Shown: in pieces, positions 806 to 15,817 of the stretch
How positions within the stretch are numbered: position 1 is the stretch's first letter
Layout: every line of letters begins with the position of its first letter
Origin: Elusimicrobiota bacterium
Lineage (GTDB): Bacteria > Elusimicrobiota > Elusimicrobia > Elusimicrobiales > UBA9959
Reading direction: 5' to 3'
DNA length: 64,000 nt
NCBI GenBank assembly: GCA_026388155.1
Contig: JAPLKI010000016.1
Span: 198,705 to 262,704, forward strand
Made by a program: the position numbers and the translations under genes
Notes under the pieces: generated by a model
What the model saw: only the letters and a program-made list of their open reading frames with translations
Told to the model about the DNA's origin: nothing
The model's database searches: none

Positions 806-825
806 GTTAGTTCCTCCTAGCAAAT

Positions 826-891: not shown

Positions 892-896
892 TCCGC

Positions 897-1652
897 TTAC
901 CCCTGCTTTTGCGCGTCTTTATAAACTCCCAGCGGGAACACCGGCAGCATCCCCTCGGCCACGAACTTGGTGGCCTCCGACGGATTGTCCAGCCTGGTTC
1001 CCCAGTTTGTCGGGCACATCGAGAGCACTTCCACCATTGAGAAGCCCTTGCAGTCCACCTGGTTCTGGAAGGCTTTCTTTATGGCAGCCTTGGTTTTAAG
1101 CACGCCCGGCGCGGTATGCACCGAGGTGCGTTCAAGGTATGCGGCCCCGTCTATGGTGGCAAGCAGTTCGCACATGCGTATGGGATAGCCCGCCTGTTTT
1201 GCCGTGCGGCCTTCCACACAGGTGGTGGCTTTCTGGCCTATTAAGGTGGTCGGGGCCATCTGGCCGCCGGTCATACCGTAGATGGCGTTGTTAATAAAGA
1301 TCACCGTTATGTTTTCCGAGCGTATGGCCGCATGTACTATTTCCGCCATGCCTATGGAGGCCAGATCGCCGTCGCCCTGGTAGGAGAACACTATAGTGTC
1401 GGGTTTAGACCTTTTAAGGCCCGTTGCGATGGCCGGGCCGCGCCCGTGCGCGCCCTGTATCGTGTCGCAGTTGAAGTAGGCGTCCGCGAATACCGCGCAG
1501 CCCACCGGGGCCACGCATATCGTTCTTGCGCGTATGCCCAGGTCGTCCATTGCCTCCGCTATCAGGCGGTGCACTATGCCGTGCCCGCAGCCCGGGCAGT
1601 AATGCATTTTCAGGTCCAGCAGGGATTCAGGCCTTTTATTTAATAGCTGCAT
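897..1652 (-). CDS. 2-oxoacid:ferredoxin oxidoreductase, beta (TPP-binding) subunit
   Basis: CPGCGHG N-terminal motif and GDGD...N TPP-binding motif (YQGDGDLASIGMAE). Overlaps the alpha gene by 17 nt. Confidence 0.9.
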   Translation of the reverse strand: MQLLNKRPESLLDLKMHYCPGCGHGIVHRLIAEAMDDLGIRARTICVAPVGCAVFADAYFNCDTIQGAHGRGPAIATGLKRSKPDTIVFSYQGDGDLASIGMAEIVHAAIRSENITVIFINNAIYGMTGGQMAPTTLIGQKATTCVEGRTAKQAGYPIRMCELLATIDGAAYLERTSVHTAPGVLKTKAAIKKAFQNQVDCKGFSMVEVLSMCPTNWGTRLDNPSEATKFVAEGMLPVFPLGVYKDAQKQG

Positions 1653-2727: not shown

Positions 2728-2740
2728 ATGCTCCTTCAAC

Positions 2741-2835
2741 GTAAGGGTATAGGGGCGAGGGGTTAGCGGTTAGGGTTGAGGTATTAAGGAACTTCTTCCC
2801 TATCCCCTAGTCTCTATCCCCTAGCCCCTGTCACT
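2741..2835. repeat. Word-palindrome element family W1, copy 2
   Basis: GTAAGGGTATAGGGGCGAGGGGTTAGCGGTTAGGG...AAGGAACTTCTTCCCTATCCCCTAGTCTCTATCCCCTAGCCCCTG, between the alpha and delta subunit genes. Confidence 0.7.
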
Positions 2836-3034
2836 TGTAAACCTTTATTGCCAAATCCGGGCAGATGCGCGCGCAACTCTGGCAGGCTATGCAGCAGCCG
2901 ACCTTGGCGTCCAGGGCCGGGTAGTAGCCGGTCTTAGAGAATTTATGGGATTTTTCAATGCACTTCTTGGGGCAGACTTGTATGCAAAGATAGCAGCCCT
3001 TGCACTTATCCACTTCCACTTCCATTTTAGGCAT
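2831..3034 (-). CDS. 2-oxoacid:ferredoxin oxidoreductase delta subunit (2x[4Fe-4S] ferredoxin)
   Basis: Two CxxCxxCxxxCP clusters (CKGCYLCIQVCP, CIACQSCARICP) in 67 aa, first gene of the operon, GGGAGG RBS. Confidence 0.85.
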   Translation of the reverse strand: MPKMEVEVDKCKGCYLCIQVCPKKCIEKSHKFSKTGYYPALDAKVGCCIACQSCARICPDLAIKVYK

Positions 3035-3241
3035 TATAACCTCCCGATATTAGACTATGGATGTGCCGTAAAGGACTGTGTCCGTCGTACGGCCAGGCTT
3101 ATTATGACAGGGCTGCTGTCGCGGTAAAGCTCGATTGCAGCGTTCACTCAGGGTTTCTTTGCGCGGCTGGCAGAGCTCGGCGGGTATGTGTCGGGCTGCC
3201 GGAAGCCGCGTTCTATAAAAAGCCTGTTCTTAAAGTATATC

Positions 3242-3265
3242 AAAAAAAATGGGCGCCTAGCGCCC
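3242..3265 (-). terminator. Rho-independent terminator after the receiver-domain gene
   Basis: GGGCGC-CTA-GCGCCC hairpin preceded on the plus strand by A8, which reads as a U-run on the minus strand. Confidence 0.55.
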
Positions 3266-3293
3266 GTTTTTTGCCGGTTAAAAATCACGGCTT

Positions 3294-3653
3294 TTATTGT
3301 ATTTTCAGTAGTTTCTTGGCTTCGCTTATCAGTGTTTCGGGATTTACCGGTTTTTTGAGTACGCTGACATTGAAGGCTTTCCCCAGTTTCTCAACGCTTT
3401 CGGGCTTGCCGGTTGAAAATATTATGGGGGTGGCCGTTTGTAAAATATTGCGCAGGCGGTCAAAAACTTTCTGGCCGCCGCCCGCCGGCATGTCGACATC
3501 AAGCACCAGAAGATCCGGCTTGAATTGCTGGTAGCGCATGACGGCCGCGCTTGCGTCCTCCGCGGTCTGGATCTCAAAGCCGGCTTTTGTGAAAATTTCC
3601 TTGTAAAGTTCCAATATGCAAAGGTCGTCGTCAATAGCGAGTATTTTAAGCAT
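3294..3653 (-). CDS. Single-domain response regulator (CheY-like receiver)
   Basis: MLKILAIDDD...DLLVLDVDMP...KKP receiver pattern. Start set at the internal ATG at 3653; the upstream extension lies inside a repeat element. Confidence 0.8.
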   Translation of the reverse strand: MLKILAIDDDLCILELYKEIFTKAGFEIQTAEDASAAVMRYQQFKPDLLVLDVDMPAGGGQKVFDRLRNILQTATPIIFSTGKPESVEKLGKAFNVSVLKKPVNPETLISEAKKLLKIQ

Positions 3654-3660
3654 AAACCCC

Positions 3661-3745
3661 CGGGAGAGTCGTGCGTCTGAGGGGCTAAGAGTCAGAGAGT
3701 CGGAGAGTCGGAGAGTTGACTCTGACAATCCGCGCCTCTGAGACT
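3661..3745. repeat. Word-palindrome element (GAGTCRGAGA / CTCTGAGACTC words)
   Basis: AGAGTCAGAGAGTCGGAGAGTCGGAGAGTTGACTCTGAC...CTCTGAGACTCT. Same architecture as W1/W2 but different words. Confidence 0.55.
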
Positions 3746-4930
3746 CTAAGACTTGCCACCGTCCAGTACCTTATTATATAAACTTTTAAGCGAGATGTTC
3801 ATGGCTTCCACGCTGAACTGCGGATATCCGGTATAGTCTTTTTGTAGCACCCAGCGGCGGGCGGCCTCTCCCATGGCGCGTCTTTTGGCTTCGTTGTTAA
3901 GAAGGGGCTCGGCCGCTCCCGCAATAGCGCCCGGATCGGCCGGCGGCACCAGGATCCCGGTTACGCCATCCTTAACCGCATAAGGCAGTCCGCATACCTT
4001 TGAGGCTATCACGGGCAGGCGGGCGTATTGCGCTTCAAGGATGGTGCGCCCCATGGCTTCGTTGAGGGAAGGCTGGACATATATGTCCATGACGCAAAGA
4101 TAGCGGGAAATATCTTTTTGAAAGCCGGTAAAATTTATTTTCTCCCCCAGTGCAAGCTGTCTTGCCAGTGTGCGCAGTTCCGTCGCAAGTCCGCCGTCCC
4201 CGACTACAATAAAACGCAATTTTTTATTTTCCGCTTTGTCAGATATGAGTTTTGCCGCTCTTATGAAATATTCAACTCCCTTAACGGGTTCAAGCCTGGC
4301 CGCCACGCCCATAACCGTCTCGTCCGCGGATAGTCCCATTTCTTTGCGTATTGACGCCCTTTCGGATCCCATGGGCGTAAAACGCACGCCGCTGTGAATA
4401 ACGGTCCATTTTTTCCGCGCGCCCAGGCCGGCAGCCACGGACTCTTCAAGTTCTCCCGGCGTCAGGGCTATAAAGCGGTCTGTCCAACGCGCGGCCAGGC
4501 GTTCGGAGAGCTTGAATATAAATATTTTGAAATGGCCGAAACAGCCGTAGAGAAGGTGACCGTGAGGAGTGTGTATAACCAGGGCTTTTCCGCTTTTCAC
4601 GGAACGATTATAAGCCCTGGCGGCCAAGCGTCCCAAAAAACCTGCTTTTGCGGCGTGGGTATGTATTATTCCGGGCTTAAGCCTTAAAAATATCCGCTTT
4701 AATCCAAAGTAAACTTTCAGGTCGCTTAAAGGTGAAATCCCCCTTTTCAAATCGGGCAGTTCCAGGTATTGCACGTTTTCAGGCAATTCAAGCGCGGCGG
4801 AACAGGGGCCCGCCGCCAGCAATACGTCCCGGTCCTTTGCCTGATAGATGGCGCTGTCAATAACATTGCGCGCCGGGCCGCCCGGTTCAAGCCGGGTTAT
4901 AATGTGAATTATCAGCGTTTTACCCGCCAA
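3746..4930 (-). CDS. Glycosyltransferase family 4 (GT-B, retaining)
   Basis: C-terminal EAMGRTILEAQYARLPVIASKVCGLPYAVKDGVTGILV (E-x7-E motif region). TTG start with AAGGAG upstream. Confidence 0.8.
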   Translation of the reverse strand: MAGKTLIIHIITRLEPGGPARNVIDSAIYQAKDRDVLLAAGPCSAALELPENVQYLELPDLKRGISPLSDLKVYFGLKRIFLRLKPGIIHTHAAKAGFLGRLAARAYNRSVKSGKALVIHTPHGHLLYGCFGHFKIFIFKLSERLAARWTDRFIALTPGELEESVAAGLGARKKWTVIHSGVRFTPMGSERASIRKEMGLSADETVMGVAARLEPVKGVEYFIRAAKLISDKAENKKLRFIVVGDGGLATELRTLARQLALGEKINFTGFQKDISRYLCVMDIYVQPSLNEAMGRTILEAQYARLPVIASKVCGLPYAVKDGVTGILVPPADPGAIAGAAEPLLNNEAKRRAMGEAARRWVLQKDYTGYPQFSVEAMNISLKSLYNKVLDGGKS

Positions 4931-4960
4931 TCAAAGCTCCTTTAAAATTGGAAACAAAAA

Positions 4961-6292
4961 CTACTTTTTTGTTTTTACTTTCTCCGGCTGTTTTTTTGCG
5001 GCGCCTGCAATTGCCTTGCCTATGATATCCAGTCCCTCCGCCAGTTGTTCGTCCGTTATCACAAGGGGAAGTAAAAGGCGGATCACATTCTTGTGCAGTC
5101 CCGCGCCCGCAAGTATTACTCCGTTGTCGCGGGCGTCCTGTATGACTTTTTGGCATATTTCAGTGGCGGGCGACCATGTTTTTTCATCTTCAATGAACTC
5201 AATCGCCAGCATAGCGCCTATACCCCGCACATCTTTTATAACGGGATATTTTTGTTTAAGTTCTTCAAAGTTGCCCCTGATGATCTTCCCCAGGTGAAGA
5301 GCCCTTTCAAGCAGCTTTTCCCCGTCTATCATTTTTATAACTTCTATCGCCGCCGCGCACGCCAGCGGGTTCCCGCCGAAAGTGCTGCCTATCGAGCTTT
5401 TCGGCAGCGCATCAAAATATTTTTTACCTCCGACCACGGCGGACAGCGGCAGCCCCGCCGCGATCGATTTTCCGAGGGTTATAAGGTCGGGTTCCACTCC
5501 CCAGTTTTCAATGGCGAAGAATTTGCCCGTTCTGCCGTAACCCGACTGGACTTCGTCCGCGACCATCAGAATCCCGTATTTTTCGGTGACTCTGCGTATC
5601 TCCTGAAGAAAACCTTCTGGCGGAACGTTAAATCCGCCTTCACCCTGTATCGGCTCGATTATGACCGCCGCGACGTCTTCGGGGCAGACGGTCTCCAGCA
5701 GCAGCTTTTCAAAATCTTTCGGGGAATATTTGTTTTTGCGCGGATTCGGGTATGGCAGCCGGTGAACGTCCGGCGCGGTGCCGAAAATATATTTATACGG
5801 CATAGGCCGCTGCGTCATGGTCATAGTGAGAACCGTGCGCCCGTGGAACGCTCCCTCAAAAACCACTATACTCCTTCTCTTGGTAACGCCCCGCGCTATC
5901 TTGACCGCGTTTTCAACCGCTTCCGCTCCGCTGTTGAAAAATGCGACGGCTTTTTCGGATTTCCCCTGCGCTTTTGTAGCCAGTATTTCCGACAGTTCGA
6001 TCCAAGGCTCGTACGGGATCACGGTGAAGTCGGAATGAAGGTAATTTTCAGCCTGCGCTTTTATAGCCTCAACGACTTTTTTCGGCGAATAACCCGTAAC
6101 AAGGCAGCCCCAGCCGCCGGTAAAATCCAGGAACCTGTTCCCGTCCACATCCTCAATTACCGCGCCGTGGCCTTTTTTTATGTAAAACGGGGCAAGCGAC
6201 TCCATCGGGGAAGCGACGCAGGTTTTTCTTCTTGCGGTCAGTTCCCTGCTTTTCGGCCCGGGTATTTCCGTATGAATAAGTGTGTGTTTCAT
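4961..6292 (-). CDS. Class-III PLP-dependent aminotransferase (GabT/ArgD/LysJ-like)
   Basis: DEVQSGYGRTGKFFA and LGKSIAAGLPLSAV (PLP lysine) motifs, 443 aa. Confidence 0.85.
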   Translation of the reverse strand: MKHTLIHTEIPGPKSRELTARRKTCVASPMESLAPFYIKKGHGAVIEDVDGNRFLDFTGGWGCLVTGYSPKKVVEAIKAQAENYLHSDFTVIPYEPWIELSEILATKAQGKSEKAVAFFNSGAEAVENAVKIARGVTKRRSIVVFEGAFHGRTVLTMTMTQRPMPYKYIFGTAPDVHRLPYPNPRKNKYSPKDFEKLLLETVCPEDVAAVIIEPIQGEGGFNVPPEGFLQEIRRVTEKYGILMVADEVQSGYGRTGKFFAIENWGVEPDLITLGKSIAAGLPLSAVVGGKKYFDALPKSSIGSTFGGNPLACAAAIEVIKMIDGEKLLERALHLGKIIRGNFEELKQKYPVIKDVRGIGAMLAIEFIEDEKTWSPATEICQKVIQDARDNGVILAGAGLHKNVIRLLLPLVITDEQLAEGLDIIGKAIAGAAKKQPEKVKTKK

Positions 6293-6325
6293 ATTATTTT
6301 TTCCTTATATAAGTGAAGTTTTAAT

Positions 6326-6415
6326 GCTGGCGGGCTAGTACGCTGGTATGCTTTCCGAAGTCCCTGAATTAAGCATACAAGCATACTAGCTGGCAATCTT
6401 ACTCGCCTACTAGCC
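6326..6415. repeat. Word-palindrome element (GCTAGTAC / GCATAC words)
   Basis: GGGCTAGTACGCTGGTATGCTT...AAGCATACAAGCATACTAGCTGG...CCTACTAGCC between the aminotransferase and the dehydratase small subunit. Confidence 0.5.
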
Positions 6416-6455
6416 TATGGCTGTGCCGTACCAAGGGCTATGCCCATAAGACGGC

Positions 6456-6959
6456 CTAGCGGTTCACTGTTTCCATCAGTAATTTGCGTGTATAGGAGAC
6501 CAGTCCGCCGGCGTCTATAATAGCCTGGCGCGCCTTCGGGAGCGGCTCGATCGCGAACGATTCGCCGGACGTGCGGTTGAAAACCCTGCCCTGGGCTATT
6601 TCCAGTTCGTCGCCTTCCGCGGCTTCGATCGACGGACAGATCACTATGTCCAGGCCCAGGTTTATCGCGCTCTGCAGGAAAATACGCGCGATGTTCCTGG
6701 CCACTATCGTCAGCTCATGGCCCTTAAGGCAGGATACCGCCTGCTCGCGCGAGGAGCCGCAGCCGAAGTTGTTGCCGCCCAATATAACGCTTCCGGCGGG
6801 GATCCCCCCCGCCTTGAGTTTGCCGTTGAAAGCCGTGTTGTCGGCGAACGCGAACTGCGGTGTTTCGGTGGGCAGCACTGTCGCCATGAACCGGCCGGGA
6901 TAAATGATATCGGTGGACACGTCGTCGCCAACCTTTAGAACAATTTTTTTAGTAGCCAT
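6456..6959 (-). CDS. Aconitase-family dehydratase small subunit (LeuD/HacB-like)
   Basis: DDVSTDIIYPGRF...GGNNFGCGSSREQA swivel-domain motifs. Start at the ATG at 6959 with GGAGG upstream. Confidence 0.8.
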   Translation of the reverse strand: MATKKIVLKVGDDVSTDIIYPGRFMATVLPTETPQFAFADNTAFNGKLKAGGIPAGSVILGGNNFGCGSSREQAVSCLKGHELTIVARNIARIFLQSAINLGLDIVICPSIEAAEGDELEIAQGRVFNRTSGESFAIEPLPKARQAIIDAGGLVSYTRKLLMETVNR

Positions 6960-7013
6960 GTGAAAAATACCTCCAATATTAAATTCTTCTATCTTCAATG
7001 TTTCCTGTTTTGC

Positions 7014-8312
7014 TCATTTTGCAACCAGCGCTCCTCTGGGATCTGTTATTTTGCCCGTGATGGCGCTTGCCGCCGCCACAGCCGGCGAGCACAGATACAC
7101 TTCGGCCTTAGGGTTGCCCATGCGCCCCTTGAAATTACGGTTAGTGGTCGCCAGCGCGGTTTCCCCGTCGCCCAGCGCGCCCTGATGTATGCCGAGGCAC
7201 GGCCCGCAGCCGGGATTACAAACTACCGCGCCGGCTTTTGCCAGCGCGCTTATCGCGCCGCTTTCAAGCGCTTTGTGGTAAATCCGCCACGACGCGGGAA
7301 ACACCAGCATCCGCGTTCCGTCCGCCACGCGGCGGCCTTTCAGTATCTTTGCCGCGATTTCGAGATCGTCCAGCCGCCCGTTGGTGCAGGAGCCGATCAC
7401 GATCTGGTGCAGCTTCTTGCCCGCGACTTCTCCAATCGGTTTAACATTGTCCACCGTGTGCGGGCAGGCTATCTGAGGCTCAAGTTTGGAGGCGTCTATT
7501 TCAAGCACCTGGTCGTAGACGGCGTCCGGATCGGGACCGAAAATATCCAGCGGTTCTTTCACGCCCGCTTCTTCCCGCAGGTAGCGCTGGGTTTCCGCGT
7601 CGGGCGGCACCAGACCCGCGGTGGCGCCGGCTTCAACGCTCATGTTACAGAGCACCAGCCGCCCCGAGGTGGGCATATTGCTGATAGTGTCTCCATAAAA
7701 CTCTATCGCCTTGAAGTTGGCTCCCTGCGCGGTGAGCCGCCCTATCACGTGCAGTATCAGGTCTTTCGGGTAGACATGCTCCTGGAATTTTCCGTTGACT
7801 ATCACTTTTATCGAGCCCGGCACCTCCACATTCAGTATCCTGCCAAGCGTCCATACCGAGGCCATCTCTGTGGCGCCGATGCCGAACGCGAACGCGCCCA
7901 GCGCGCCATGTGTGGTGGTATGGCTGTCGGTGCCCACCAGCACGCTGCCCGGACGCACGTACCCGTTTTCGGCCAGTATCTGGTGGCAGATACCGCCCAC
8001 ATCGCCGCGGATATCGTGGAATTTGCGTATCCCCTGCTTACCCACGAACTCGCGTATCTTCTTCTGGTTGCCCGCGGTCTTTGATGACTCGGCGGGAACG
8101 CGGTGATCAAAGATTATCGCTATGTGGTCCGGATTCCAGACTTTCGCCTCGCGTCCCGTTCCCTTGAATATCTCGTCAAATTGGCTGATCACCAAAGCGC
8201 CGTTTTCATGCGACATTGCCAGGTTGACTTCCGGTTCCAGTACTTCTCCGACCGCCACCTGCGGACGTCCGACTGCCTTTGCCAACAGCTTCTGAACATA
8301 AGTCATGCCCAT
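7014..8312 (-). CDS. Aconitase-family dehydratase large subunit (LeuC/HacA-like)
   Basis: GTDSHTTTHGALGAFAFGIGATE, SCTNGRLDDL and CGPCLG Fe-S ligand motifs. 432 aa, the short LeuC/HacA type. Confidence 0.85.
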   Translation of the reverse strand: MGMTYVQKLLAKAVGRPQVAVGEVLEPEVNLAMSHENGALVISQFDEIFKGTGREAKVWNPDHIAIIFDHRVPAESSKTAGNQKKIREFVGKQGIRKFHDIRGDVGGICHQILAENGYVRPGSVLVGTDSHTTTHGALGAFAFGIGATEMASVWTLGRILNVEVPGSIKVIVNGKFQEHVYPKDLILHVIGRLTAQGANFKAIEFYGDTISNMPTSGRLVLCNMSVEAGATAGLVPPDAETQRYLREEAGVKEPLDIFGPDPDAVYDQVLEIDASKLEPQIACPHTVDNVKPIGEVAGKKLHQIVIGSCTNGRLDDLEIAAKILKGRRVADGTRMLVFPASWRIYHKALESGAISALAKAGAVVCNPGCGPCLGIHQGALGDGETALATTNRNFKGRMGNPKAEVYLCSPAVAAASAITGKITDPRGALVAK

Positions 8313-8351
8313 ATTATTATCTCCTTAATGCTAATTTGAGTAGATATCAAC

Positions 8352-8447
8352 TAGCGACTTGCAAATGGCGAATAGTGAATAGGGTCTGCGGAAGAGATTA
8401 TGTTTTTTAATAAACTATTCGCTATTCGCTGTTCCCTATTCGCTATG
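8352..8447. repeat. Word-palindrome element family W3 (GCGAATAG / CTATTCGC), copy 1
   Basis: GGCGAATAGTGAATAGGG...CTATTCGCTATTCGCTGTTCCCTATTCGCTATG. Related copy at 27821-27905. Confidence 0.6.
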
Positions 8448-8449
8448 CC

Positions 8450-9649
8450 CTACACCACGCCCTTAGCTTTCAGGGCGGCCAATTCGGTTTCATCAACTCC
8501 GAGTTCTTTGAGTATTTCCGCCGTGTCGGCCGAAAGGCGCGGGGGCGGCGCGTTAAGCTGTCCCGGCATCTTTTCAAACTTGGCGGAGAGGTCGAACAGT
8601 TTCAGCGTGCCTATGCCCTCGGCAGACACCTCTTTGAGTATCCCGCGGTGCTTTATCTGCGGCTGGTTAAGCGCAGCTTCAAGTTCCAAAATGGCGCCGC
8701 TCGGCACGCCTTTCGCGTTAAGCAGCTCCACCCACTCGGCGGTCGGCTTTTCGGCAAGCTTCACTTCCAGCAGCGGGGTCAGAAGTTTGCGGTTCTTTTT
8801 ACGGGTGTCCCGCTTTTCGAACCGCGGATCTTTCTTCAGTTCCGGAACTCCCAGAATGTCGCAGAGGGCTTCCCACTGCTCCTGCTTGTTCGCCGCGATA
8901 TTAATATAGCCGTCCCTGGCCTTGAACGTTCCTGACGGCGCGGCGGTTAAATTGTCGTTGCCCATCGGCACCGGATGCTGGCCGCCGATAAGGAGGTTCG
9001 CCGCCACCCAGCCCATAAGGGGCATGATCGAGTCCAGCATCGCTATATCGATAAACTGCCCTTCGCCGGTGCGTTCGCGATGATAGAGCGCCGCTAATAC
9101 GGCAAAGGCCGCGTTGAGCCCGCCCACCGTATCGCATACGGGGAAGCCCGCGCGCAGGGGGTTGAGCCTTTCATCGCCGTTGATGTCCATAACGCCGCTC
9201 AAGCCCTGGATTATCTGGTCGTAGGCGGGTTTGAACGCGTCGGGCCCGGTATGGCCGAAGCCGGAGATGGCGCAGTAGACTAGGCGGGGATTTATTTCGG
9301 AAAGGGATTTATAGCCGAGGCCCAGCCGGTCCATAACGTCGGGCCGGAAGTTCTCCACCAGCACATCCGCATTTTTCACCAGCTTCCGGAAGATCTCTTT
9401 ACCCTCCGGAGTCTTGGTGTTCAGGGTCAGCGACTTTTTGTTCGCGTTCTGGGCCAGGAAACTGGTTCCCATCAACTGGTCGTTCAAAGCCGGCATTATG
9501 CCGAGCTTCCGGGCCAGGTCGCCGTCTTTTGGGTTTTCGATCTTAATTACTTCGGCGCCCAGCAGCGCCAGGTGCAGAGTGGCAAAAGGCCCGGCTAACA
9601 CGTTGGTAAGGTCAAGCACCCGTATTCCCGAGAGGATTGGTTTGCTCAT
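8450..9649 (-). CDS. Family III CoA-transferase (CaiB/BaiF/Frc type)
   Basis: GIRVLDLTNVLAGPFATLHLALLGAEVIKIE N-terminus and conserved Asp region PVCDTVGG, 399 aa. Confidence 0.85.
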   Translation of the reverse strand: MSKPILSGIRVLDLTNVLAGPFATLHLALLGAEVIKIENPKDGDLARKLGIMPALNDQLMGTSFLAQNANKKSLTLNTKTPEGKEIFRKLVKNADVLVENFRPDVMDRLGLGYKSLSEINPRLVYCAISGFGHTGPDAFKPAYDQIIQGLSGVMDINGDERLNPLRAGFPVCDTVGGLNAAFAVLAALYHRERTGEGQFIDIAMLDSIMPLMGWVAANLLIGGQHPVPMGNDNLTAAPSGTFKARDGYINIAANKQEQWEALCDILGVPELKKDPRFEKRDTRKKNRKLLTPLLEVKLAEKPTAEWVELLNAKGVPSGAILELEAALNQPQIKHRGILKEVSAEGIGTLKLFDLSAKFEKMPGQLNAPPPRLSADTAEILKELGVDETELAALKAKGVV

Positions 9650-9654
9650 AAATG

Positions 9655-9850
9655 CTCCTTTAAGCGGCGTTCACGCCGCTGTCACAAGTTGCATGTCACA
9701 TGACAAGTTGCAAGTCTCATGGCCGTTTGTTAGCCATAGGCCCTGATACTGCACTACCATAGGCTTGTCTCAGGTCACAAGTGAAGAATGAGAGTTCGCT
9801 TGAAACTTGATACTAAGCTTGCTTGTGACCTGTGGCGTGTATCCTGTAAC
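9655..9850. repeat. Hairpin-rich spacer (GTCACAAGT words)
   Basis: GCGGCG-TTCA-CGCCGC hairpin, then repeated GTCACAAGT/GACAAGTTGCAAG words. CAGGTCACAAG (9771-9781) pairs with CTTGTGACCTG (9822-9832). Confidence 0.5.
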
Positions 9851-9853
9851 TCG

Positions 9854-10801
9854 CTACTGCTGGCTGACGGTCTGCGACTTGTTAATATGGATGTGTCCGA
9901 TCTTGTAAACGAAGCCCTGCATGTCGCGGCCGAAATGCGCGGCCGCGTCGCGGGCGACGGCGATAAGGAGGCCCAGGCTCACGTCCATGCGCAGGCCCTC
10001 CCTTTGAAGGGCGTGGACAAAATCCTCGGTGGCAACGTTGCCGGCCGCGACTTTTGTGAACGGGCAGCCGCCCAGGCCTGCAAAAGACGTTTCAACTGAA
10101 GTCACACCGGAGCGCATGGCGGCGAAGATGTTCGCCATGCCGAGGCCGTAAGTGTTGTGGAAATGACAGGCGCACTCAACGCCCTTGTCCATCTTGAAAA
10201 TTTCGCCGAAGAGCCGCTCCACCTGCGCCGGATGGGCATGTCCCGCCGTGTCGGCAAGGCTGATGTTGCGCAGGCCCGCTTCAAGGTAGGCCCGCACCAT
10301 ATTGAGTACGCGTTCCTCAGGGATAGCGCCTTCAAACCCGCAGCCGAACGCGGATTGTACCGAGACCTGCACTTTTTTACCGGCGGCTACGGCGGTTTTC
10401 GCGGCGCCGATTATACGCTTTGTGGATTCCTCTGTTCCCATGCCGGTATTCTTTCGGCTGTGGGTCTCGCTGGCCGAAGCGCCCATGCAGAACATCTCAA
10501 CGCCGCAGGCAAGTCCCCGCTCCAAACCTTTCTCATTAAGCACCAGTCCCGAGAGGACGGCCGCGGAAGTCTTTTTCGCTGTCAGCCGGCGGAACAGCTC
10601 GTCCGTGTCCGCCATTTGCGGGACTTTTTCGGGATGCACGAAAGAGCCGACCTGAATGATGTCCAGACCGGACTCCATCAGGTCCCGGAGCCAGGCCTCT
10701 TTCTTCTCAATGGGGACTACCTCCTTCTCCACTTGCAGGCCGTCCCGGGGGCCGACTTCGTGCAGCAGGATGCGCGGCGAATTATTCTGTGTTATATTCA
10801 T
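9854..10801 (-). CDS. HMG-CoA-lyase-like (HMGL family) TIM-barrel oxo-acid lyase
   Basis: LLHEVGPRDGLQ N-terminal motif typical of HMG-CoA lyase. About 315 aa with no LeuA-type C-terminal domain. The ATG at 10801 overlaps the upstream stop (ATGA). Confidence 0.75.
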   Translation of the reverse strand: MNITQNNSPRILLHEVGPRDGLQVEKEVVPIEKKEAWLRDLMESGLDIIQVGSFVHPEKVPQMADTDELFRRLTAKKTSAAVLSGLVLNEKGLERGLACGVEMFCMGASASETHSRKNTGMGTEESTKRIIGAAKTAVAAGKKVQVSVQSAFGCGFEGAIPEERVLNMVRAYLEAGLRNISLADTAGHAHPAQVERLFGEIFKMDKGVECACHFHNTYGLGMANIFAAMRSGVTSVETSFAGLGGCPFTKVAAGNVATEDFVHALQREGLRMDVSLGLLIAVARDAAAHFGRDMQGFVYKIGHIHINKSQTVSQQ

Positions 10802-11943
10802 GTCCGCGCCGGGCCGGCTACTGCGCACTTGTCCGCTATGGCCCGCGCCATATCAAGAGTGCTGGCAGAACCGCCCATATCGTAAGTGCGCACTTTGCCC
10901 TCTTTAATCACCAGGGCGGTTGCGTCCTCTATCGCCTTCGCTTTGTCGGCCTCTCCGAGCCATTCAAGCATCATCTTTGCCGCGAGAATGGTGGCGATGG
11001 GATTGACTTTGTAAAGGCCGGCGTACTTGGGCGCAGAGCCGTGAGAGGGTTCGAACACCGCCAGTTTCTCTCCGATATTGGCCGAGCAGCCGAAACCCAG
11101 TCCCCCCACCAGCTGCGCGCTCAGATCCGAGATTATGTCGCCGTACAGGTTCGGGGCGACCATTACGTCGTAGTTGAACGGGTTCTTGATCAGCCACATG
11201 GTCATGGCGTCAATGTTCGCGTCATCTATCTTTATCTCGGGGTAGTCCTTAGCCACGGCGCGCGCCGCTTCTAAAAACAGCCCGTCTGTCGCGCGTACGA
11301 CATTGGCTTTGTGAACCACCGTTACTTTCTTCCGGTTGAACTTGCGGGCGAACTCAAAGGCGGCCCGGGCAATGCGCTCCGAGCCTTTTTTTGTGTTTAT
11401 CTTGCAGGAAATAGCGTATTCATCGCTCTTTAAGTTCTTAAACGCTTTGAACGGGGGTGAAAGTTTGATAAGCGTGTCGCGAAGTTCGTCCGGCACGGTA
11501 TTGAATTCCACGCCTGAATAGAGGTCCTCTGTGTTTTCGCGGAACACCACTATATCAATGCCCTCTTTGTAGTTGAGAGGGTTGCCGGGGTAGGCTTTGC
11601 AGGGGCGCAGGCAAACATAGAGGTCGAACAGCTGCCTCATGCGCACGATAGGCGAGCGGTAAACCATCCCCTTGCCCTGGAGCGCGGGTATCAGCTCCTT
11701 CTCGGCGGTCTTAACCGGCTTTGAAGTGATGGCCCCGAACAGCGCGGCTTTCACGCTCTTAAGGAGGTCAATGGTGCGCTGCGGGAACGCGTCGCCTTCC
11801 TTGCACCAGAAGTCCCAGCCGATGTCGCCGTGGATGTATTCGGCGTCAAATTCAACGCGGTCAAGGACGATACGCGCCGCTTCCATTACTTCTTTGCCGA
11901 CGCCGTCGCCGGGGAGCCATGCTATCTGATGTTTTTTGCCCAT
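10798..11943 (-). CDS. Isocitrate/isopropylmalate/homoisocitrate dehydrogenase family protein
   Basis: NLYGDIISDLSAQLVGGLGFGCSANIG signature and SPIVRMRQLFDLYVCLRP, 381 aa. Confidence 0.85.
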   Translation of the reverse strand: MGKKHQIAWLPGDGVGKEVMEAARIVLDRVEFDAEYIHGDIGWDFWCKEGDAFPQRTIDLLKSVKAALFGAITSKPVKTAEKELIPALQGKGMVYRSPIVRMRQLFDLYVCLRPCKAYPGNPLNYKEGIDIVVFRENTEDLYSGVEFNTVPDELRDTLIKLSPPFKAFKNLKSDEYAISCKINTKKGSERIARAAFEFARKFNRKKVTVVHKANVVRATDGLFLEAARAVAKDYPEIKIDDANIDAMTMWLIKNPFNYDVMVAPNLYGDIISDLSAQLVGGLGFGCSANIGEKLAVFEPSHGSAPKYAGLYKVNPIATILAAKMMLEWLGEADKAKAIEDATALVIKEGKVRTYDMGGSASTLDMARAIADKCAVAGPART

Positions 11944-12150
11944 ATTGGAACCTCCTGGAGTCTCTTGATCTGAGTCGTTTTTAATGACGGATTTTTTCAG
12001 TAAATAGCCAATTAAAAATGAATGCGTAATAATCTTATCACAAGCCCGCTTTTATTGTCAACAACTTCCCCTTCCTGACTAAAAAAGCGCTTTGGCCTCT
12101 CAATATATTAAACAGGCTCCTTATAAACGGACGCCGCGCCGGATAAGCGT

Positions 12151-12179
12151 TATATTCATCTGAAAAAGTATTGTATAAT
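12151..12179 (+). promoter_or_regulatory. Candidate sigma70-type promoter for the 12252 gene
   Basis: TGTATAAT at 12172-12179 in an AT-rich divergent region. The -35 is weak. Confidence 0.25.
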
Positions 12180-12251
12180 CTGAAAAAGCACTTCTCAGAC
12201 AGGCAACGCGAATCCCTGCCTGTTGAAAAGATGCGGTAAAATGTCCGTACA

Positions 12252-12992
12252 ATGGAGAAAAAAATGATAAAAGCACCCCCTGAAAAGGTCTCGCAGGAAG
12301 TGGTAACCTTCAAAGTCTCTGAACTTGAGCCGTTATTGTGCGGCCCGTCAATGGATATACCGCCTTTTGAGCCGGCGATGGTAAAGCTGAAAACCGGCGA
12401 AACGATGGTGATCCGCCCGATAAAAAGAGAGGAAGCCCCTTTATTCCTTGACTATGTCAAAAAGTTAATGGACATTGACCATGATTTTTACGACATCGTG
12501 GGAGCCCGGGTCTACGCCGAGATTCTCGGCTGGGTCAGGAACCGCCTGAAAGACCCCTATCATCTCGTCGGTGTTATTGACGGACATGTGGTTGCGTTCT
12601 GTAACGGCCGTCTGATGAACGAGAATATCAATATCAGCCTTCATTCTCTGGCTTTCAGAAGAGGATTGCGGGCCGGGGCGATAATGTATTACGCGAAGTG
12701 CGAATACTGTTTCGAAACTTTGAAACAGAAGGAATTCTGGGCGACCTATGAAAGCTATAACGGCCTCAAGAGATGGGGCATAGGAATGGCCCAGCCTTCT
12801 TATCCGTGGCCCGACGTACAGCACGAGCTCGGCGGCGCCAAGGTTTTCTACATTACCCAGAACTATTGGAAAACAACGGTCAAAAAGTATCTGGAAGAGA
12901 TGACCCAGACAAAAATGGTCAGGCCGGTTCCCGCCGCGCTACTGAAGAAGAACGAGAAGCTTATCATGCCGACCAAACTGGAAGAGGATTGA
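12252..12992 (+). CDS. Hypothetical protein (possibly GNAT-like fold)
   Basis: Long ORF. The central region IRPIKREE...VGVIDGHVVAFCNGRL...RRGLRAGAIMYY loosely resembles acetyltransferases. Confidence 0.4.
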   Translation: MEKKMIKAPPEKVSQEVVTFKVSELEPLLCGPSMDIPPFEPAMVKLKTGETMVIRPIKREEAPLFLDYVKKLMDIDHDFYDIVGARVYAEILGWVRNRLKDPYHLVGVIDGHVVAFCNGRLMNENINISLHSLAFRRGLRAGAIMYYAKCEYCFETLKQKEFWATYESYNGLKRWGIGMAQPSYPWPDVQHELGGAKVFYITQNYWKTTVKKYLEEMTQTKMVRPVPAALLKKNEKLIMPTKLEED

Positions 12993-13111
12993 CAGGGAAA
13001 AACACGGAAAAAACGCGACTCCCCCGGACCAGCCGGGGGAGTTTTGCTTATGATGGCCGCTCCGCCAAAGCTCCGGAGCCGTCGGCGGGAAAAAACAGTG
13101 AATTGCCTTAT

Positions 13112-13987
13112 ATGAAAATATGGCTTATAGCCTTTATTCTTTTACTGCCTAAACCGGGCTTTGGCCAGTTTTATGTGGATAACGCCGCGCCTCAGGGCGA
13201 CGAGCCAATAATTGATTTCTGCTCCCAGGGCAGGTTCCTGATCTTCACCGGAAATTGCTCACTGCCGGAAAAATCAAAATTTAAGGATTCGATAACTTTG
13301 AAAGCCTGCACCGATATCCCGGCCTTTCTGAGCCAGGGGCTGGACGCGCTTTACCCTCAGACCAAAACGGAGATATACCAGGACCTGCCGGCCGATTCCG
13401 TTTATGAAACGCTCGCAAAACCGTTCGTGCTCGGTTTTTTCTTTATCGGCGAGGGCGACATCAAGGGCGGCTTTGTGACCGGTCCGAAAAAAGAAAAAGT
13501 TTATCCGGCCATTGAAGCCTGTATTTCCAAATATGACCTTTATGGCGGGTTCACTTCGCATAGCAAGTATTCGCCGGATGTGGCCGCCCCTGCGGCGCTC
13601 CGCGGGCGTATTTTAAGCCGTACGGAGCTGATTTACGGCGGCGCGGGAGCGGCGGCTGCCTCCTGGCCCAAACTCTGCAAGCCGAAGTTAAGTCTGGTTT
13701 ACCCCACCCGCACTTTTGCCGGCAGGATGAAAAGCGACGCGGCGAAGTTTTTTGAAACGCTGAAGGAAGAGAAGAAGAAGCAGGTGTTGAAAACACTGGA
13801 AGGTATTTGTTCCGCCTGCCCTCAGTATATCAAGGCCGGACATCCGCTCGCGCGCCTCTGCCCGCCCAACTCGGATGTGTGTAAAGTTAAAAAGATAATG
13901 CCCGGCACCGAACAGTTCATACTTGAAAATTACTGCCTGGCGATACATCCTGAGTATGGAAGCAGTACGGAAAATAAAAGTTATTGA
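13112..13987 (+). CDS. Secreted hypothetical protein
   Basis: Internal ATG gives MKIWLIAFILLLPKPGFGQ, a signal-peptide-like start. No recognisable domain and no clear RBS. Confidence 0.45.
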   Translation: MKIWLIAFILLLPKPGFGQFYVDNAAPQGDEPIIDFCSQGRFLIFTGNCSLPEKSKFKDSITLKACTDIPAFLSQGLDALYPQTKTEIYQDLPADSVYETLAKPFVLGFFFIGEGDIKGGFVTGPKKEKVYPAIEACISKYDLYGGFTSHSKYSPDVAAPAALRGRILSRTELIYGGAGAAAASWPKLCKPKLSLVYPTRTFAGRMKSDAAKFFETLKEEKKKQVLKTLEGICSACPQYIKAGHPLARLCPPNSDVCKVKKIMPGTEQFILENYCLAIHPEYGSSTENKSY

Positions 13988-14110: not shown

Positions 14111-15817
14111 ATGTCTGAAAATGCGAAAGGTTTTACCAGTCACATCAATATGCGCAAGCGCGGGATTTTTATGGCACTCGCCTGTGTTTCTCTGGCTGTT
14201 TATTCCGCAACCGAATTACAGGCCGATTCTTACGAGTCAAGAGCGGAGGTTACCCGCCTTACAAAGTCATTGACCGATTCCAACAGCTATAAGCGCAAGG
14301 CAGCCATTGTCGCCCTGGGCGCACTGGGCTCCGACGCCAAAACTGCGGTTCCCGACCTTACAAACGCGTTGGGTGATTCTGATACCGATGTGCGCGCATT
14401 TGCCGCCGACGCTCTGGGTAAAATAGGCCCCGACGCCAAAACCGCGGTTCCCGAACTTGTAAAGGCGTTAAGCGATTCCAATCCCGATGTCCGCGTGGCG
14501 GCGGCCGTTGCCTTGGGTTTAATCGGCCCGGAAGCCAAAACTGCCGTTCCTAAACTTACAAAGCTTTCAAGCTCTTACAATGCCGACATGCGCGGGGAGG
14601 CTACTGTCGCCCTGGCTAAAATAGGCTCTAACACTCTTGCCGATCTCATAAAAGCGTTAAGCGATTCCGAGGAAAAGGTGCGCAGCCGCGCTGTTGCCGC
14701 CTTGGGCAAAATGGGCCTTGAAGCCAAAACCGCCGTCCCCGAACTTACAAAGGCATTGAGCGATTCCGCCGTCGATGTACGCGCATTAGCCGCCGACGCC
14801 CTGGGTAAAATAGGTCCGGAAGCTAAGACCGCCATTGCCGAACTCACAAAGGGATTGGGCGATTTTAATGCGGTGCGCATAAATGCGGCCTGGGCCCTGG
14901 GGAAAATAGGTCCTGACGCCGCACCCGCTGTTCCCGACCTTATCAAATCGTTGAGCGATTCTAATGACGAGGTGCGCATAAGTGCGGCCGGCGCCCTGGG
15001 GAAAATAGGCCCCGAAGCCAAAACCGCGGTTTCTGAACTCGCAAAATCATTAAGCGATTCTAACAACAAAGTGCGCGAAAACGCGGCCGGCGCCCTGGGG
15101 AAAATAGGCCCGGAGGCCAAAAGCGCCGTTCCCGAACTTACAAAGGCGTTGAGTGACTCTAACGATAAACTGCGCAAATTAGCCGCCGGCGCATTAGGTT
15201 TAATAGGCCCTGAGGCCAAAGACGCTGTTCCGGAACTCACCAAACTATTGGGCGATCCTAACGATGAGGCGCGCGCGAATGCCGCCGCCGCCCTGGATAA
15301 AATAAACCCTAAAGCCGAAACCGCCGTTCCTGAAAGCAAAACCACTGTGAGCGAGGCTGAGGATATTGCGCGCAAAGCGTATGCCCAGGCTCCGGATAAA
15401 ACAAGTCCTCAAAACAAAGACGCGGTTACCGAACTTATAAAAGCCTTAAGCGATTCTGACATAGGCGCGCGCACAGCTGCCGCCCGCACCCTGGGTAAAC
15501 TCGGTTCCGGAGCCAAAAACGCGGTTCCTGACCTTGCGCTGGCATTAGGCGATTCCGATGCCGGCGTGCGCAAAGCCGTCGCCCAAGCCCTGGGTAAAAT
15601 AGGCCCCAAGGCCAAAAGCGCCGTTCCTGAACTTATAAAAGCGTTGAGCGATTCAGATGCCGGCGTGCGCATATTAACCGCCCAAGCCCTGGGTAAAATG
15701 GGCACAAAGGCCAAAAGCGCGATCCCTGAACTTAACAAAGCGTTGAACGATTCCGACGCCGGCGTGCGCAAATTTGCCGCCAAAGCCCTGAGTAAAATAA
15801 ATCCGCCGGCTAAATAG
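14111..15817 (+). CDS. HEAT-repeat (PBS-lyase HEAT-like) protein, exported or anchored
   Basis: About 17 tandem ~31-aa units AKTAVPELTKALSDSNxxVRxxAAxALGKIGPE. AAGGAGG RBS. Hydrophobic N-terminal segment. Confidence 0.8.
   Translation: MSENAKGFTSHINMRKRGIFMALACVSLAVYSATELQADSYESRAEVTRLTKSLTDSNSYKRKAAIVALGALGSDAKTAVPDLTNALGDSDTDVRAFAADALGKIGPDAKTAVPELVKALSDSNPDVRVAAAVALGLIGPEAKTAVPKLTKLSSSYNADMRGEATVALAKIGSNTLADLIKALSDSEEKVRSRAVAALGKMGLEAKTAVPELTKALSDSAVDVRALAADALGKIGPEAKTAIAELTKGLGDFNAVRINAAWALGKIGPDAAPAVPDLIKSLSDSNDEVRISAAGALGKIGPEAKTAVSELAKSLSDSNNKVRENAAGALGKIGPEAKSAVPELTKALSDSNDKLRKLAAGALGLIGPEAKDAVPELTKLLGDPNDEARANAAAALDKINPKAETAVPESKTTVSEAEDIARKAYAQAPDKTSPQNKDAVTELIKALSDSDIGARTAAARTLGKLGSGAKNAVPDLALALGDSDAGVRKAVAQALGKIGPKAKSAVPELIKALSDSDAGVRILTAQALGKMGTKAKSAIPELNKALNDSDAGVRKFAAKALSKINPPAK

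Follow-up and report, generated by a model that had tools for sequence, protein, structure and literature searches.

The 64,000-nucleotide stretch of Elusimicrobiota contig JAPLKI010000016.1 analyzed here (the window) carries five genes on its minus strand at 6456-11943, in the order DH-LY-CT-LC-LD. They encode a beta-decarboxylating dehydrogenase (DH), an enzyme of the hydroxymethylglutaryl-coenzyme A (HMG-CoA) lyase type (LY), a family III CoA-transferase (CT) and the large and small subunits of a LeuC/LeuD-type hydro-lyase (LC and LD). We propose that this core is a thioester-conserving version of the classical 2-oxoacid C2-elongation sequence, in which CT and LY would replace a condensing synthase of the LeuA, CimA or homocitrate synthase type. 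Since no thioester is hydrolyzed, such a sequence would be reversible, and the reading that we put forward, tentatively and just short of calling it probable, is that it works as a reverse alpha-aminoadipate module, breaking 2-oxoadipate down to acetyl-CoA and 2-oxoglutarate as the end of lysine catabolism. With a little more reserve we suggest as a possibility that bacteria of many phyla degrade lysine in this way, via a reversed first half of the alpha-aminoadipate pathway, which would be an undescribed route with two new activities and a general recipe for reversal.

Open reading frame (ORF) analysis together with Pfam and NCBIfam searches confirmed what a first-pass annotation of this DNA had read from the letters, namely six genes on the minus strand, the five above and a class-III aminotransferase (AT), all of the families that it had assigned. 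The LeuB/LeuCD-type genes do stand together with an HMGL-type lyase and a family III CoA-transferase, in the place that a condensing synthase would take. The catalytic residues are kept in LY, LC and DH, as judged by motifs, cluster cysteines and the dehydrogenase Tyr, Lys and Asp.

Conservation of the neighborhood in relatives, which the first-pass annotation had named as a check, is pronounced. A one-genome-per-species scan for relatives of the lyase gave 313 genomes and a metagenome scan more than 537 stretches; the genome loci examined were the best 80 of the 313 genomes, and 164 non-duplicate related loci were compared, 89 of them long enough to judge. With colinearity judged by tblastn with the window's proteins, DH-LY-CT-LC-LD are colinear on one strand in 81 of these 89 loci (91%), an arrangement far beyond chance, and across the colinear loci all five core proteins are 64-95% identical to the window copies. 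The flanks around the conserved core differ from locus to locus. The labels of the loci cover over a dozen phylum-level groups, those of the best 80 being Elusimicrobia, Eisenbacteria, Gemmatimonadota, Acidobacteriota (Holophagae, Thermoanaerobaculia, Vicinamibacteria and Terriglobia), Ignavibacteria/Chlorobi, Fibrobacterota, Zixibacteria, Latescibacterota, Krumholzibacteriia, Omnitrophota, Myxococcota, Planctomycetia, Opitutaceae and some Proteobacteria. Metagenome-assembled genomes labeled Gemmatimonas, Mesoterricola and Haliangium are among those that contain relatives. A lyase relative with 48% identity also sits with Iso_dh, CoA_transf_3, Aconitase and Aconitase_C genes. The colinear order and the same partner families around this more distant lyase indicate that the five core genes are therefore one functional unit, and the high identity across phyla with unrelated flanks suggests that the module has spread by horizontal transfer. 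Flank comparison revealed no recurrent neighbor outside Elusimicrobia beyond lineage synteny, an analysis that is weak in loci of high G+C content, where the ORF caller picked antisense ORFs. Neither a second copy of the five core genes, in the window or the fetched flanks, nor a LeuA-like or other HMGL-domain gene, in the window or any fetched flank, was found.

Several loci, referred to here by L numbers, depart from the bare five-gene arrangement. Unrelated genes are inserted inside the operon in L059 (8932-10608), L067 (1055-2320) and L090 (6395-9175 and 11403-11873), and an unrelated insertion lies between DH and LY in L006, L018 and L021; the order of the core genes is undisturbed. The inserted genes encode secreted-looking proteins (one of them, in L090, with a Por_Secre_tail domain of the type IX secretion type), a methyltransferase, a DUF6933 protein and a response regulator. 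A variant with only LY and CT, present in L076 (7992-12637) and L082 (Thermoanaerobaculia), continues with a 267-aa protein of no assigned family and a 563-aa FAD_binding_2 flavoprotein (fumarate-reductase/TcuA-like), and in L004 (5765-8496) a related flavoprotein and a flavin mononucleotide-dependent 2-hydroxyacid dehydrogenase lie divergently upstream of the full module. These flavoprotein neighbors might represent an alternative entry to the substrate of LY and CT. In L054, L056, L063, L065 and L087 (Acidobacteriota-like and other loci; at ∼5.7-6.6 kb in locus coordinates), a divergent gene immediately upstream of DH encodes a protein with a helix-turn-helix at its N terminus that by eye resembles LysR, and the corresponding gene of L171 (Elusimicrobiales, 8254-9183) has the Pfam LysR domains HTH_1 and LysR_substrate, making the LysR-like protein a candidate regulator of the module.

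The sole Pfam domain of LY is HMGL-like (residues 21-292) and the protein ends after the TIM barrel, so that the length of ∼315 aa and the missing LeuA/CimA/NifV C-terminal domain noted in the first-pass annotation hold, as do the EVGPRDGLQ motif and the ATGA coupling to DH; the overlap of the DH stop with the LY start can be read directly in the sequence, ACATGAATATA. A longer GTG ORF reaching to 10828 was rejected as the LY gene, and the ATG start was adopted. LY passes the cut-off of the NCBIfam HMG-CoA lyase subfamily model NF004283 (263 versus 246) and reaches at most 72 bits with the best LeuA, NifV, CimA and homocitrate synthase models, whose cut-offs are 413-950; by these scores and by the missing C-terminal subdomains it falls outside the thioester-hydrolyzing synthases. 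No model for (R)-citramalyl-CoA lyase (Ccl) is among its NCBIfam matches. LY carries the motifs EVGPRDGLQ, HFHNTYG, GLGGCPF and ...AAGN, all of them conserved in its clade; at ∼40% identity to solved HMG-CoA lyases, it keeps the HMGL catalytic and metal residues Arg41-Asp42, His233-x-His235, Cys266 (in GLGGCP) and Asn275 (human numbering).

LY nevertheless belongs to a tight clade of its own, distinct from the leucine-catabolic HMG-CoA lyases with which the first-pass annotation had asked for it to be compared, with at least 64% identity inside and at most 48% outside. In a library clustered at 50% identity, the clade is one representative (64%), the next relative is at 48% and ordinary HMG-CoA lyases are at 33-44%. 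The equivalent of human Glu72 is Gln in 100% of 84 clade members, whereas it is Glu in 72% of 114 other HMGL proteins, and further invariant differences from other HMGL proteins occur at positions 155, 237, 250 and 251. Within the clade GCGFEG replaces GCPYEG, Glu replaces Asp at position 237 and, after the catalytic Cys, T-K-V-A-A replaces A-P-G-A-S, by which a Lys is gained in the loop. Because these clade-invariant changes fall at active-site positions that are conserved in other HMGLs, LY is unlikely to be an ordinary HMG-CoA lyase; the exchange of Glu72 for Gln and the Lys near the active-site loop would fit a substrate more anionic than HMG-CoA. In the source annotations, the names of LY and DH relatives are generic, and LY relatives are called only "hydroxymethylglutaryl-CoA lyase."

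CT matches the Pfam family CoA_transf_3 (PF02515; 416 bits) over its full length, with residues 6-376 aligned to profile positions 1-366 of 366. Its best NCBIfam match is the succinate-glutarate CoA-transferase model NF052585 at 311 bits, against a cut-off of 750, and it is below the cut-off for every other NCBIfam equivalog too, while its best PDB match is the succinate-hydroxymethylglutarate CoA-transferase 9br6 (278 bits). By these scores the closest relatives of CT are transferases of C5-C6 dicarboxylates (SUGCT and succinate-glutarate CoA-transferase), a resemblance that we count for homocitrate as the predicted substrate.

The two hydro-lyase subunits are of the LeuC/LeuD type: the three cluster cysteines of the large subunit lie in GSCTNG and CGPC, and the small subunit is a separate protein of the LeuD/HacB type. 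LC scores above the cut-offs of the NCBIfam models PRK00402, IPMI_arch and hacA_fam, and LD is just under that of LEUD_arch (105 versus 109). The scores against the methanogen-type homoaconitase models stay below their cut-offs (480 versus 550 for HacA and 85-106 versus 230 for HacB), and LC/LD lack both these equivalog scores and the Arg of the YLRT loop that mark methanogen-type HacAB. The specificity loop of LD reads YPGR[F/Y]MATVLP in nearly all clade members, so that the GRFMAT that the first-pass annotation had singled out in the window is a feature of the whole group. FMAT aligns with YLVY of the Methanocaldococcus jannaschii isopropylmalate (IPM)/citramalate isomerase, with YLRT of the homoaconitase of the same organism and with YNLT of Pyrococcus horikoshii, and its fourth residue, Thr, is the one found in YLRT and YNLT, the two loops of the homoaconitase type.

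DH is below every NCBIfam equivalog cut-off, the best scores being 355 for AksF2 (cut-off, 540) and then 331 for LEU3_arch, and its best PDB match is the Thermus thermophilus homoisocitrate dehydrogenase (240 bits). It does not classify as a 3-isopropylmalate dehydrogenase (IPMDH), given its scores with the leuB models TIGR00169 (212 versus 353) and PRK03437 (271 versus 393), SAPKYAG instead of S-A-P-D-I-A-G and the helix R-S-P-I-V, and it is far below the cut-offs of the isocitrate dehydrogenase (IDH) equivalogs. The substrate helix, YRSPIVRMRQ, is invariant in the clade. It keeps the equivalent of IDH Ser113 and has Ile at the position of IDH Asn115 in all members, which argues against isocitrate; it also has Val at the position of Arg85 of the T. 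thermophilus enzyme, and where IPMDH has Glu87 there is an Arg, which precedes the conserved substrate Arg by seven residues and lies on the same face of the helix. Such a helix would fit a methylene chain that ends in a carboxylate.

At the cofactor site of DH, the motif SAPK[Y/H]AG..K[V/A]NP occurs without exception in the clade (HGSAPKYAG..KVNP in the window), and the aligned site of the NAD-dependent homoisocitrate dehydrogenase is SAPDIAG. We take K-Y...V to be the same as the NADP determinants Lys344, Tyr345 and Val351 of Escherichia coli IDH (Chen, Dean and co-workers), and DH is accordingly predicted to depend on nicotinamide adenine dinucleotide phosphate, NADP(H). The dehydrogenases of the biosynthetic leucine and lysine routes, including characterized IPMDHs, use NAD; NADPH is the cofactor expected for reductive carboxylation.

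The link to lysine comes from the Elusimicrobia, where the core belongs to a longer run of co-directional genes. In five lineages (L088/L011/L095, L019, L089/L023, L024 and L040), LD is followed, with 8-bp gaps or overlapping codons, by homologs of the lysine-ketoglutarate reductase (LKR) domain of human AASS (PDB 8e8u, 283 bits, full length) and of saccharopine dehydrogenase/reductase (SDH; 334 bits with yeast Lys9, 2axq, and 306 bits with the AASS SDH domain). After SDH come a tungsten-type aldehyde:ferredoxin oxidoreductase (AOR) and a ThiS/MoaD-like gene in L088, L095 and L019, and an aldehyde dehydrogenase in L040. The latter exceeds the cut-off of the NCBIfam equivalog NF050084 (786 versus 730), which stands for L-piperideine-6-carboxylate (aminoadipate-semialdehyde [AASA]) dehydrogenase, and its best solved relatives include Pcd (559 bits) and human ALDH7A1 (501 bits). 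LKR, SDH and an AASA dehydrogenase are thus encoded together in related Elusimicrobia loci; this set is absent from the 64-kb window itself. By homology these genes, with either the AASA dehydrogenase or AOR, encode a route from lysine via saccharopine and AASA to 2-aminoadipate, whose direction is catabolic because ALDH7-type enzymes work physiologically from the aldehyde to the acid.

AT takes the place next to LD in five other lineages (the window, L008/L091, L010, L030 and L171). LD and AT are 2 bp apart in L171, and in two of the five lineages (L030 and L171) AT is followed directly by AOR; in L037, AOR comes directly after LD. This GabT-like protein is closest to gamma-aminobutyrate transaminases (476 bits, below the cut-off) and scores 365-369 bits with the NCBIfam 2-aminoadipate transaminase model, likewise below the cut-off (365 for the window AT), and it is a candidate 2-aminoadipate or omega-amine transaminase. 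The first-pass annotation had counted AT as a member of the pathway string, which did not hold up; it is a lineage-specific extension of the operon, outside the conserved core and adjacent to it only in some Elusimicrobia. A pair of family I CoA-transferase subunits A and B of the 3-oxoacid/acetate type (AtoDA-like), both above their NCBIfam subfamily cut-offs, lies upstream of the core in 11 non-duplicate Elusimicrobia loci, co-directional with it in most; in L088 and L171 a gene on the opposite strand separates the pair from DH.

From these observations we infer the substrate (2-oxoadipate, or homocitrate for CT), the direction and the CoA donor. 2-Oxoadipate is proposed because no linear chemistry other than the 2-oxoacid C2 sequence employs all five core enzymes, and because it is the only 2-oxoacid that connects the module to its neighbors. 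Lysine would be converted to 2-aminoadipate either by the saccharopine enzymes and the AASA dehydrogenase or AOR or by a transaminase and AOR, and 2-aminoadipate would be transaminated to 2-oxoadipate. DH would then carboxylate 2-oxoadipate reductively with CO2 and NADPH to homoisocitrate, LC/LD would turn this into cis-homoaconitate and homocitrate, CT would form homocitryl-CoA at the expense of succinyl- or acetyl-CoA and LY would cleave homocitryl-CoA to acetyl-CoA and 2-oxoglutarate. The 2-oxoglutarate formed would return part of the amino acceptor consumed upstream, and the upstream family I CoA-transferase may, speculatively, recycle the CoA donor.

The catabolic direction is favored because the module is co-transcribed with the enzymes from lysine to 2-aminoadipate, including the irreversible ALDH7-type AASA dehydrogenase, and because DH has an NADP-type motif; in addition, a CoA-transferase with a lyase is the usual design for cleavage. 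The first-pass annotation had preferred a biosynthetic, condensing role and offered catabolism as its alternative. It is the alternative that is now favored, in a form with 2-oxoadipate and 2-oxoglutarate in lysine catabolism that had not been considered there. Energetics point the same way. In a rough estimate of our own with textbook values of the citrate analogues, cleavage of the CoA ester comes to about −17 kJ/mol at millimolar concentrations, the reverse isomerization to about −7 kJ/mol, CoA transfer to about 0 kJ/mol and reductive carboxylation with a reduced NADP pool to +5 to +10 kJ/mol. On these approximate figures chain shortening would be favorable overall, and elongation would be unfavorable without hydrolysis of the thioester.

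Several points weigh against a lysine-degrading module. Among PDB matches, the IPM/citramalate isomerase of M. jannaschii is slightly nearer to both subunits than the homoaconitase of this organism is (415 versus 386 bits for LC and 104 versus 84 bits for LD), and an Ala of LD sits where the methanogen homoaconitase has the carboxylate-binding Arg26 and the IPM isomerase has Val. With its Ile/Val pocket, DH suits isopropylmalate or methylmalate as well. The homoaconitase R26V variant is reportedly still active and the P. horikoshii loop reads YNLT, so that the Arg would not be obligatory for homoaconitase activity, and the R85V variant of the Thermus homoisocitrate dehydrogenase is likewise said to keep its activity with homoisocitrate. 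Because the pocket suits an alkyl or a carboxylate chain and these Arg variants stay active, the substrate residues of DH and LD do not decide between homoisocitrate and isopropylmalate or methylmalate. The lysine link, moreover, is seen in one phylum only, and elsewhere the module stands alone. We know of no physiological precedent for reductive carboxylation by a homoisocitrate-type dehydrogenase, and many carriers are from phyla (e.g., Gemmatimonadota) with aerobic cultured members, for which low CO2 would hamper the carboxylation. Finally, AT is no more than a candidate for the 2-aminoadipate transaminase.

The unlikely but most credible alternative is a split, thioester-conserving synthase for branched-chain amino acid biosynthesis, in which LY would condense acetyl-CoA with pyruvate or 2-oxoisovalerate, CT would free (R)-citramalate or 2-isopropylmalate and pass the CoA on, and LC/LD and DH would complete the route to 2-oxobutyrate or 2-oxoisocaproate. 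LY and CT do hold the leuA position in an otherwise leu-like operon, the best scores of LC/LD are those with the IPM/citramalate isomerase of M. jannaschii, the homoaconitase Arg is missing from the LD loop, DH carries Ile/Val in place of the Leu/Leu of IPMDH, and the core comes without a transporter or regulator, as is usual for biosynthetic operons. A review has hypothesized that Ccl and a CoA-transferase, Sct, could serve as an indirect route to (R)-citramalate (PMC8307300). Against this, condensation without hydrolysis is thermodynamically weak by our estimate, the cofactor motif is of the NADP type where the aligned NAD-type relative has D-I (characterized IPMDHs use NAD), and 64-95% identity across phyla amid unrelated flanks gives the look of a transferred accessory module, not of core biosynthesis. 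In Elusimicrobia the co-transcribed genes are lysine catabolic and not ilv or leu genes. Rfam searches of the sequence preceding the operon, in the window and in seven related loci, gave no match to a riboswitch or leader. The absence of a T-box or other riboswitch speaks against the split synthase, and that of a lysine riboswitch counts against forward lysine biosynthesis of the fungal saccharopine type, which we consider highly improbable. There, the module would make 2-oxoadipate from 2-oxoglutarate, and a transaminase, AOR as acid reductase and the saccharopine enzymes would lead on to lysine. The Elusimicrobia operons match every fungal enzyme type except the ATP-dependent aminoadipate reductase, and, given an excess of reduced ferredoxin, AORs can reduce acids, but in L040 AOR is replaced by the ALDH7-type AASA dehydrogenase, which cannot reduce the acid, and in the biosynthetic direction a synthase is poorly replaced by a lyase with a transferase. 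The carrier phyla are also expected to have diaminopimelate-type peptidoglycan and hence the diaminopimelate route to lysine.

Three further readings keep the cleavage direction and change the substrate. Breakdown of a hydrophobic alkyl-malate or alkyl-maleate, for which (R)-citramalate, citraconate and 2-isopropylmalate are examples, ranks next after the split synthase and is decidedly doubtful: LC/LD would hydrate or isomerize the compound, CT would activate it and LY would cleave it to acetyl-CoA and pyruvate or 2-oxoisovalerate, with DH handling the 3-alkylmalate isomer. The resemblance of LC/LD to the IPM/citramalate isomerase and the hydrophobic Ile/Val of DH agree with such a substrate, and the Chloroflexus (R)-citramalyl-CoA lyase, a member of the HMG-CoA lyase family that reportedly acts with a family III transferase, offers a precedent; yet the co-transcription with lysine-to-aminoadipate genes is left unexplained, DH becomes a side branch despite its first place in the operon and its invariance, and no transporter is associated with the module. 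It is very unlikely, if not quite so improbable as forward lysine synthesis, that CT and LY are a true hydroxymethylglutarate (HMG) pair, turning HMG via HMG-CoA into acetoacetate plus acetyl-CoA, with the AtoDA-like transferase of Elusimicrobia activating acetoacetate and the LeuCD/LeuB-like genes serving another role. LY does pass the HMG-CoA lyase subfamily cut-off, the best solved relative of CT is a succinate-hydroxymethylglutarate CoA-transferase, and the 3-oxoacid CoA-transferase genes lie just upstream in the 11 Elusimicrobia loci, but three invariantly linked genes are left without a role, HMG is an implausible substrate for an aconitase-family enzyme since its carbinol carbon bears no carboxylate, and the conserved active-site positions at which LY departs from bona fide HMG-CoA lyases include the Glu72 equivalent. 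Least likely of all, with only a slim chance in our judgment, is a citrate version, in which 2-oxoglutarate, CO2 and NADPH would give isocitrate, citrate, citryl-CoA and finally acetyl-CoA and oxaloacetate, a cleavage independent of ATP-citrate lyase that might serve glutamate catabolism or a variant of the reductive tricarboxylic acid (TCA) cycle. Citryl-CoA is the closest analogue of HMG-CoA, and the DH motifs YRS....RQ..DLY.CLRP and SAPKYAGQ.KVNP are close to those of the E. coli NADP-IDH. The Asn that binds the gamma-carboxylate of isocitrate is Ile in every DH member, however, the LD loop has no equivalent of aconitase Arg580, such a pathway has no link to lysine genes and the carrier phyla are expected to have ordinary TCA enzymes.

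Read as a reversed lysine module, the five genes resemble several known systems in part. The alpha-aminoadipate pathway known from Thermus, archaea and fungi has, in its first half, the same three reaction types and the same isomerase and dehydrogenase superfamilies; it has a homocitrate synthase where the module has CT and an HMGL-type lyase, and it differs from the module in that the DH motif is NADP type rather than NAD type, the proposed direction is degradative and the neighboring genes are lysine catabolic, not biosynthetic. The combination of a family III CoA-transferase with an enzyme of the HMG-CoA lyase family recalls, by description, Sct and Ccl of Chloroflexus aurantiacus. Friedmann et al. 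(2006/2007) are said to have found that the (R)-citramalyl-CoA lyase of Chloroflexus belongs to the HMG-CoA lyase family and works with succinyl-CoA:(R)-citramalate CoA-transferase. These enzymes cleave a 2-hydroxy-2-substituted succinyl-CoA to acetyl-CoA and a 2-oxoacid; their substrate is citramalate, whereas that proposed for the module is homocitrate, and to our knowledge the pair has not been described together with a LeuCD/LeuB-type isomerase and dehydrogenase. Sct and Ccl are classified as EC 2.8.3.20 and EC 4.1.3.46, respectively (PMC8307300).

Mammalian SUGCT and HMGCL, the closest solved relatives of CT and LY, share with the module the logic that an acid is activated and then cleaved in a retro-aldol/Claisen reaction. 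LY differs from HMGCL in forming its own clade with changed conserved positions, and the module adds an isomerase and a dehydrogenase that have no role in HMG metabolism. The citrate cleavage systems (CitDEF, and the citryl-CoA synthetase and citryl-CoA lyase that act with NADP-IDH in the reductive TCA cycle) follow the same strategy of reversal, with thioester activation, cleavage by a lyase and feeding by NADPH-dependent reductive carboxylation of the 2-oxoacid that is one carbon shorter than the hydroxy-acid. They use CitE/CitF or citrate-synthase-like families, whereas the module uses a family III CoA-transferase and an HMGL enzyme, and its DH pocket, unlike that of their NADP-IDH, is without the isocitrate-binding Asn. 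The steps of saccharopine lysine catabolism (AASS and ALDH7A1) from lysine to 2-aminoadipate are those encoded beside the module in Elusimicrobia, and the HglS route of Pseudomonas shares the end product proposed here, 2-oxoglutarate. The fate of 2-oxoadipate would differ, with carboxylation and C2 cleavage in the module and, in the known routes, oxidative decarboxylation to glutaryl-CoA or conversion by HglS to 2-hydroxyglutarate. None of these closest known systems combines all five functions, and full-text literature searches gave no description of the five-gene set. We regard the module as a synthase-free, probably degradative version of 2-oxoacid elongation, assembled from well-known superfamilies and with two predicted new activities.

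The positions of the genes and signals in the window are collected in the table below. The promoter-like site upstream of DH is the top-scoring match in 1-12400 (10 of 12 consensus positions) and is the likely start of the operon, and the strong terminator-like hairpin ends the co-directional string that runs from DH through AT, the glycosyltransferase and the response regulator.

Genes and signals around the five-gene core (positions in the 64-kb window)
Feature	Position	Strand	Details
DH, isocitrate/isopropylmalate/homoisocitrate-family beta-decarboxylating dehydrogenase	10798-11943	-	381 aa; Pfam Iso_dh 306 bits, E = 5e-91
LY, HMG-CoA-lyase-type (DRE-TIM) enzyme	9854-10801	-	315 aa from ATG; Pfam HMGL-like
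CT, family III (CaiB/Frc/SUGCT-type) CoA-transferase	8450-9649	-	399 aa; CoA_transf_3 E = 1.5e-124
LC, LeuC/HacA-type [4Fe-4S] large subunit	7014-8312	-	432 aa; Aconitase family
LD, LeuD-like small subunit	6456-6959	-	167 aa from ATG at 6959, nine bases behind GGAGG
AT, GabT-like class-III aminotransferase	4961-6292	-	443 aa; assigned by profile searches
GT4 glycosyltransferase	3746-4930	-	between AT and the oxidoreductase genes
Response regulator	3294-3728	-	between AT and the oxidoreductase genes
Terminator-like hairpin and T-run	3251-3265	-	GGGCGCTAGGCGCCC then ATTTTTTTTG, directly after the response-regulator gene
Promoter-like site, TTGACA/18 nt/TAAGAT with TG	12032-12061	-	upstream of DH; consensus match only
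2-Oxoacid:ferredoxin oxidoreductase, delta	2831-3034	-	67 aa; 2x[4Fe-4S]
2-Oxoacid:ferredoxin oxidoreductase, alpha, VorB-like	1636-2739	-	NCBIfam 501 versus cut-off 399
2-Oxoacid:ferredoxin oxidoreductase, beta	897-1652	-	
2-Oxoacid:ferredoxin oxidoreductase, gamma	266-823	-	

The oxidoreductase genes (266-3034) form a complete four-subunit set with a promoter-like site of their own. The first-pass annotation had suggested that they supply or consume the 2-oxoacid of the module, but because the terminator and two unrelated genes lie between them and AT, they are a separate transcription unit and were rejected as members of the pathway in the window. A VorB-like oxidoreductase does recur within a few kilobases of the module in Elusimicrobia and in an Ignavibacteria-like lineage, and because two phyla have it as a neighbor, it may be loosely linked to the module, e.g., through oxidation of 2-oxoadipate or 2-oxoglutarate. 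In the Ignavibacteria-like lineage (L084, L151, L153, L161 and L170), the oxidoreductase is 46-51% identical, convergent and, in most loci, ∼2.3-2.5 kb downstream, and an Rrf2 regulator precedes it in at least L161; L059 and L067 also have the oxidoreductase within a few kilobases.

Profile scans revealed no amino acid biosynthesis genes in the rest of the window. Beside the operon promoter, two divergent ORFs of ∼242 and ∼332 aa (12252-13987, plus strand) have no Pfam match, and the second has a homolog close to the module in seven Elusimicrobia loci. They are followed by a 568-aa protein that consists almost entirely of HEAT/PBS-lyase-type repeats (14111-15817, plus strand) and a DUF169 protein (15962-16708, plus strand). 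Two nearby DEAD-box helicase genes (26062-27837 and 28776-30080, minus strand) and a beta-CASP/RMMBL ribonuclease gene (31383-32798) might form a group for RNA degradation. At 36391-40228 (minus strand), a protein of 968 aa that combines many Kelch repeats with an fn3-like region and, at its C terminus, a FlgD-Ig-like domain adjoins a PorP/SprF-like membrane protein; in this Elusimicrobia genome the two recall a cargo of type IX secretion together with its partner.

If the proposed pathway is correct, the module would be a new catabolic route for lysine and 2-oxoadipate that bypasses glutaryl-CoA dehydrogenase and returns 2-oxoglutarate, with two new enzyme activities, a homocitrate CoA-transferase and a homocitryl-CoA lyase. 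Beside the citrate cleavage of the reductive TCA cycle, it would be a second natural example of the reversal of an elongation sequence that is otherwise locked by its synthase, and a reversible, ATP-neutral module for C2 elongation or shortening would be of interest for pathway engineering. The genes are now named as leucine or ketone-body enzymes in the source annotations, and such names would be read as leucine metabolism in reconstructions of uncultivated phyla; the proposed functions would correct "HMG-CoA lyase" and "3-isopropylmalate dehydrogenase/dehydratase" in hundreds of genomes. Even with citramalate or isopropylmalate as the substrate, a widespread synthase-free variant of the pathway would be new.

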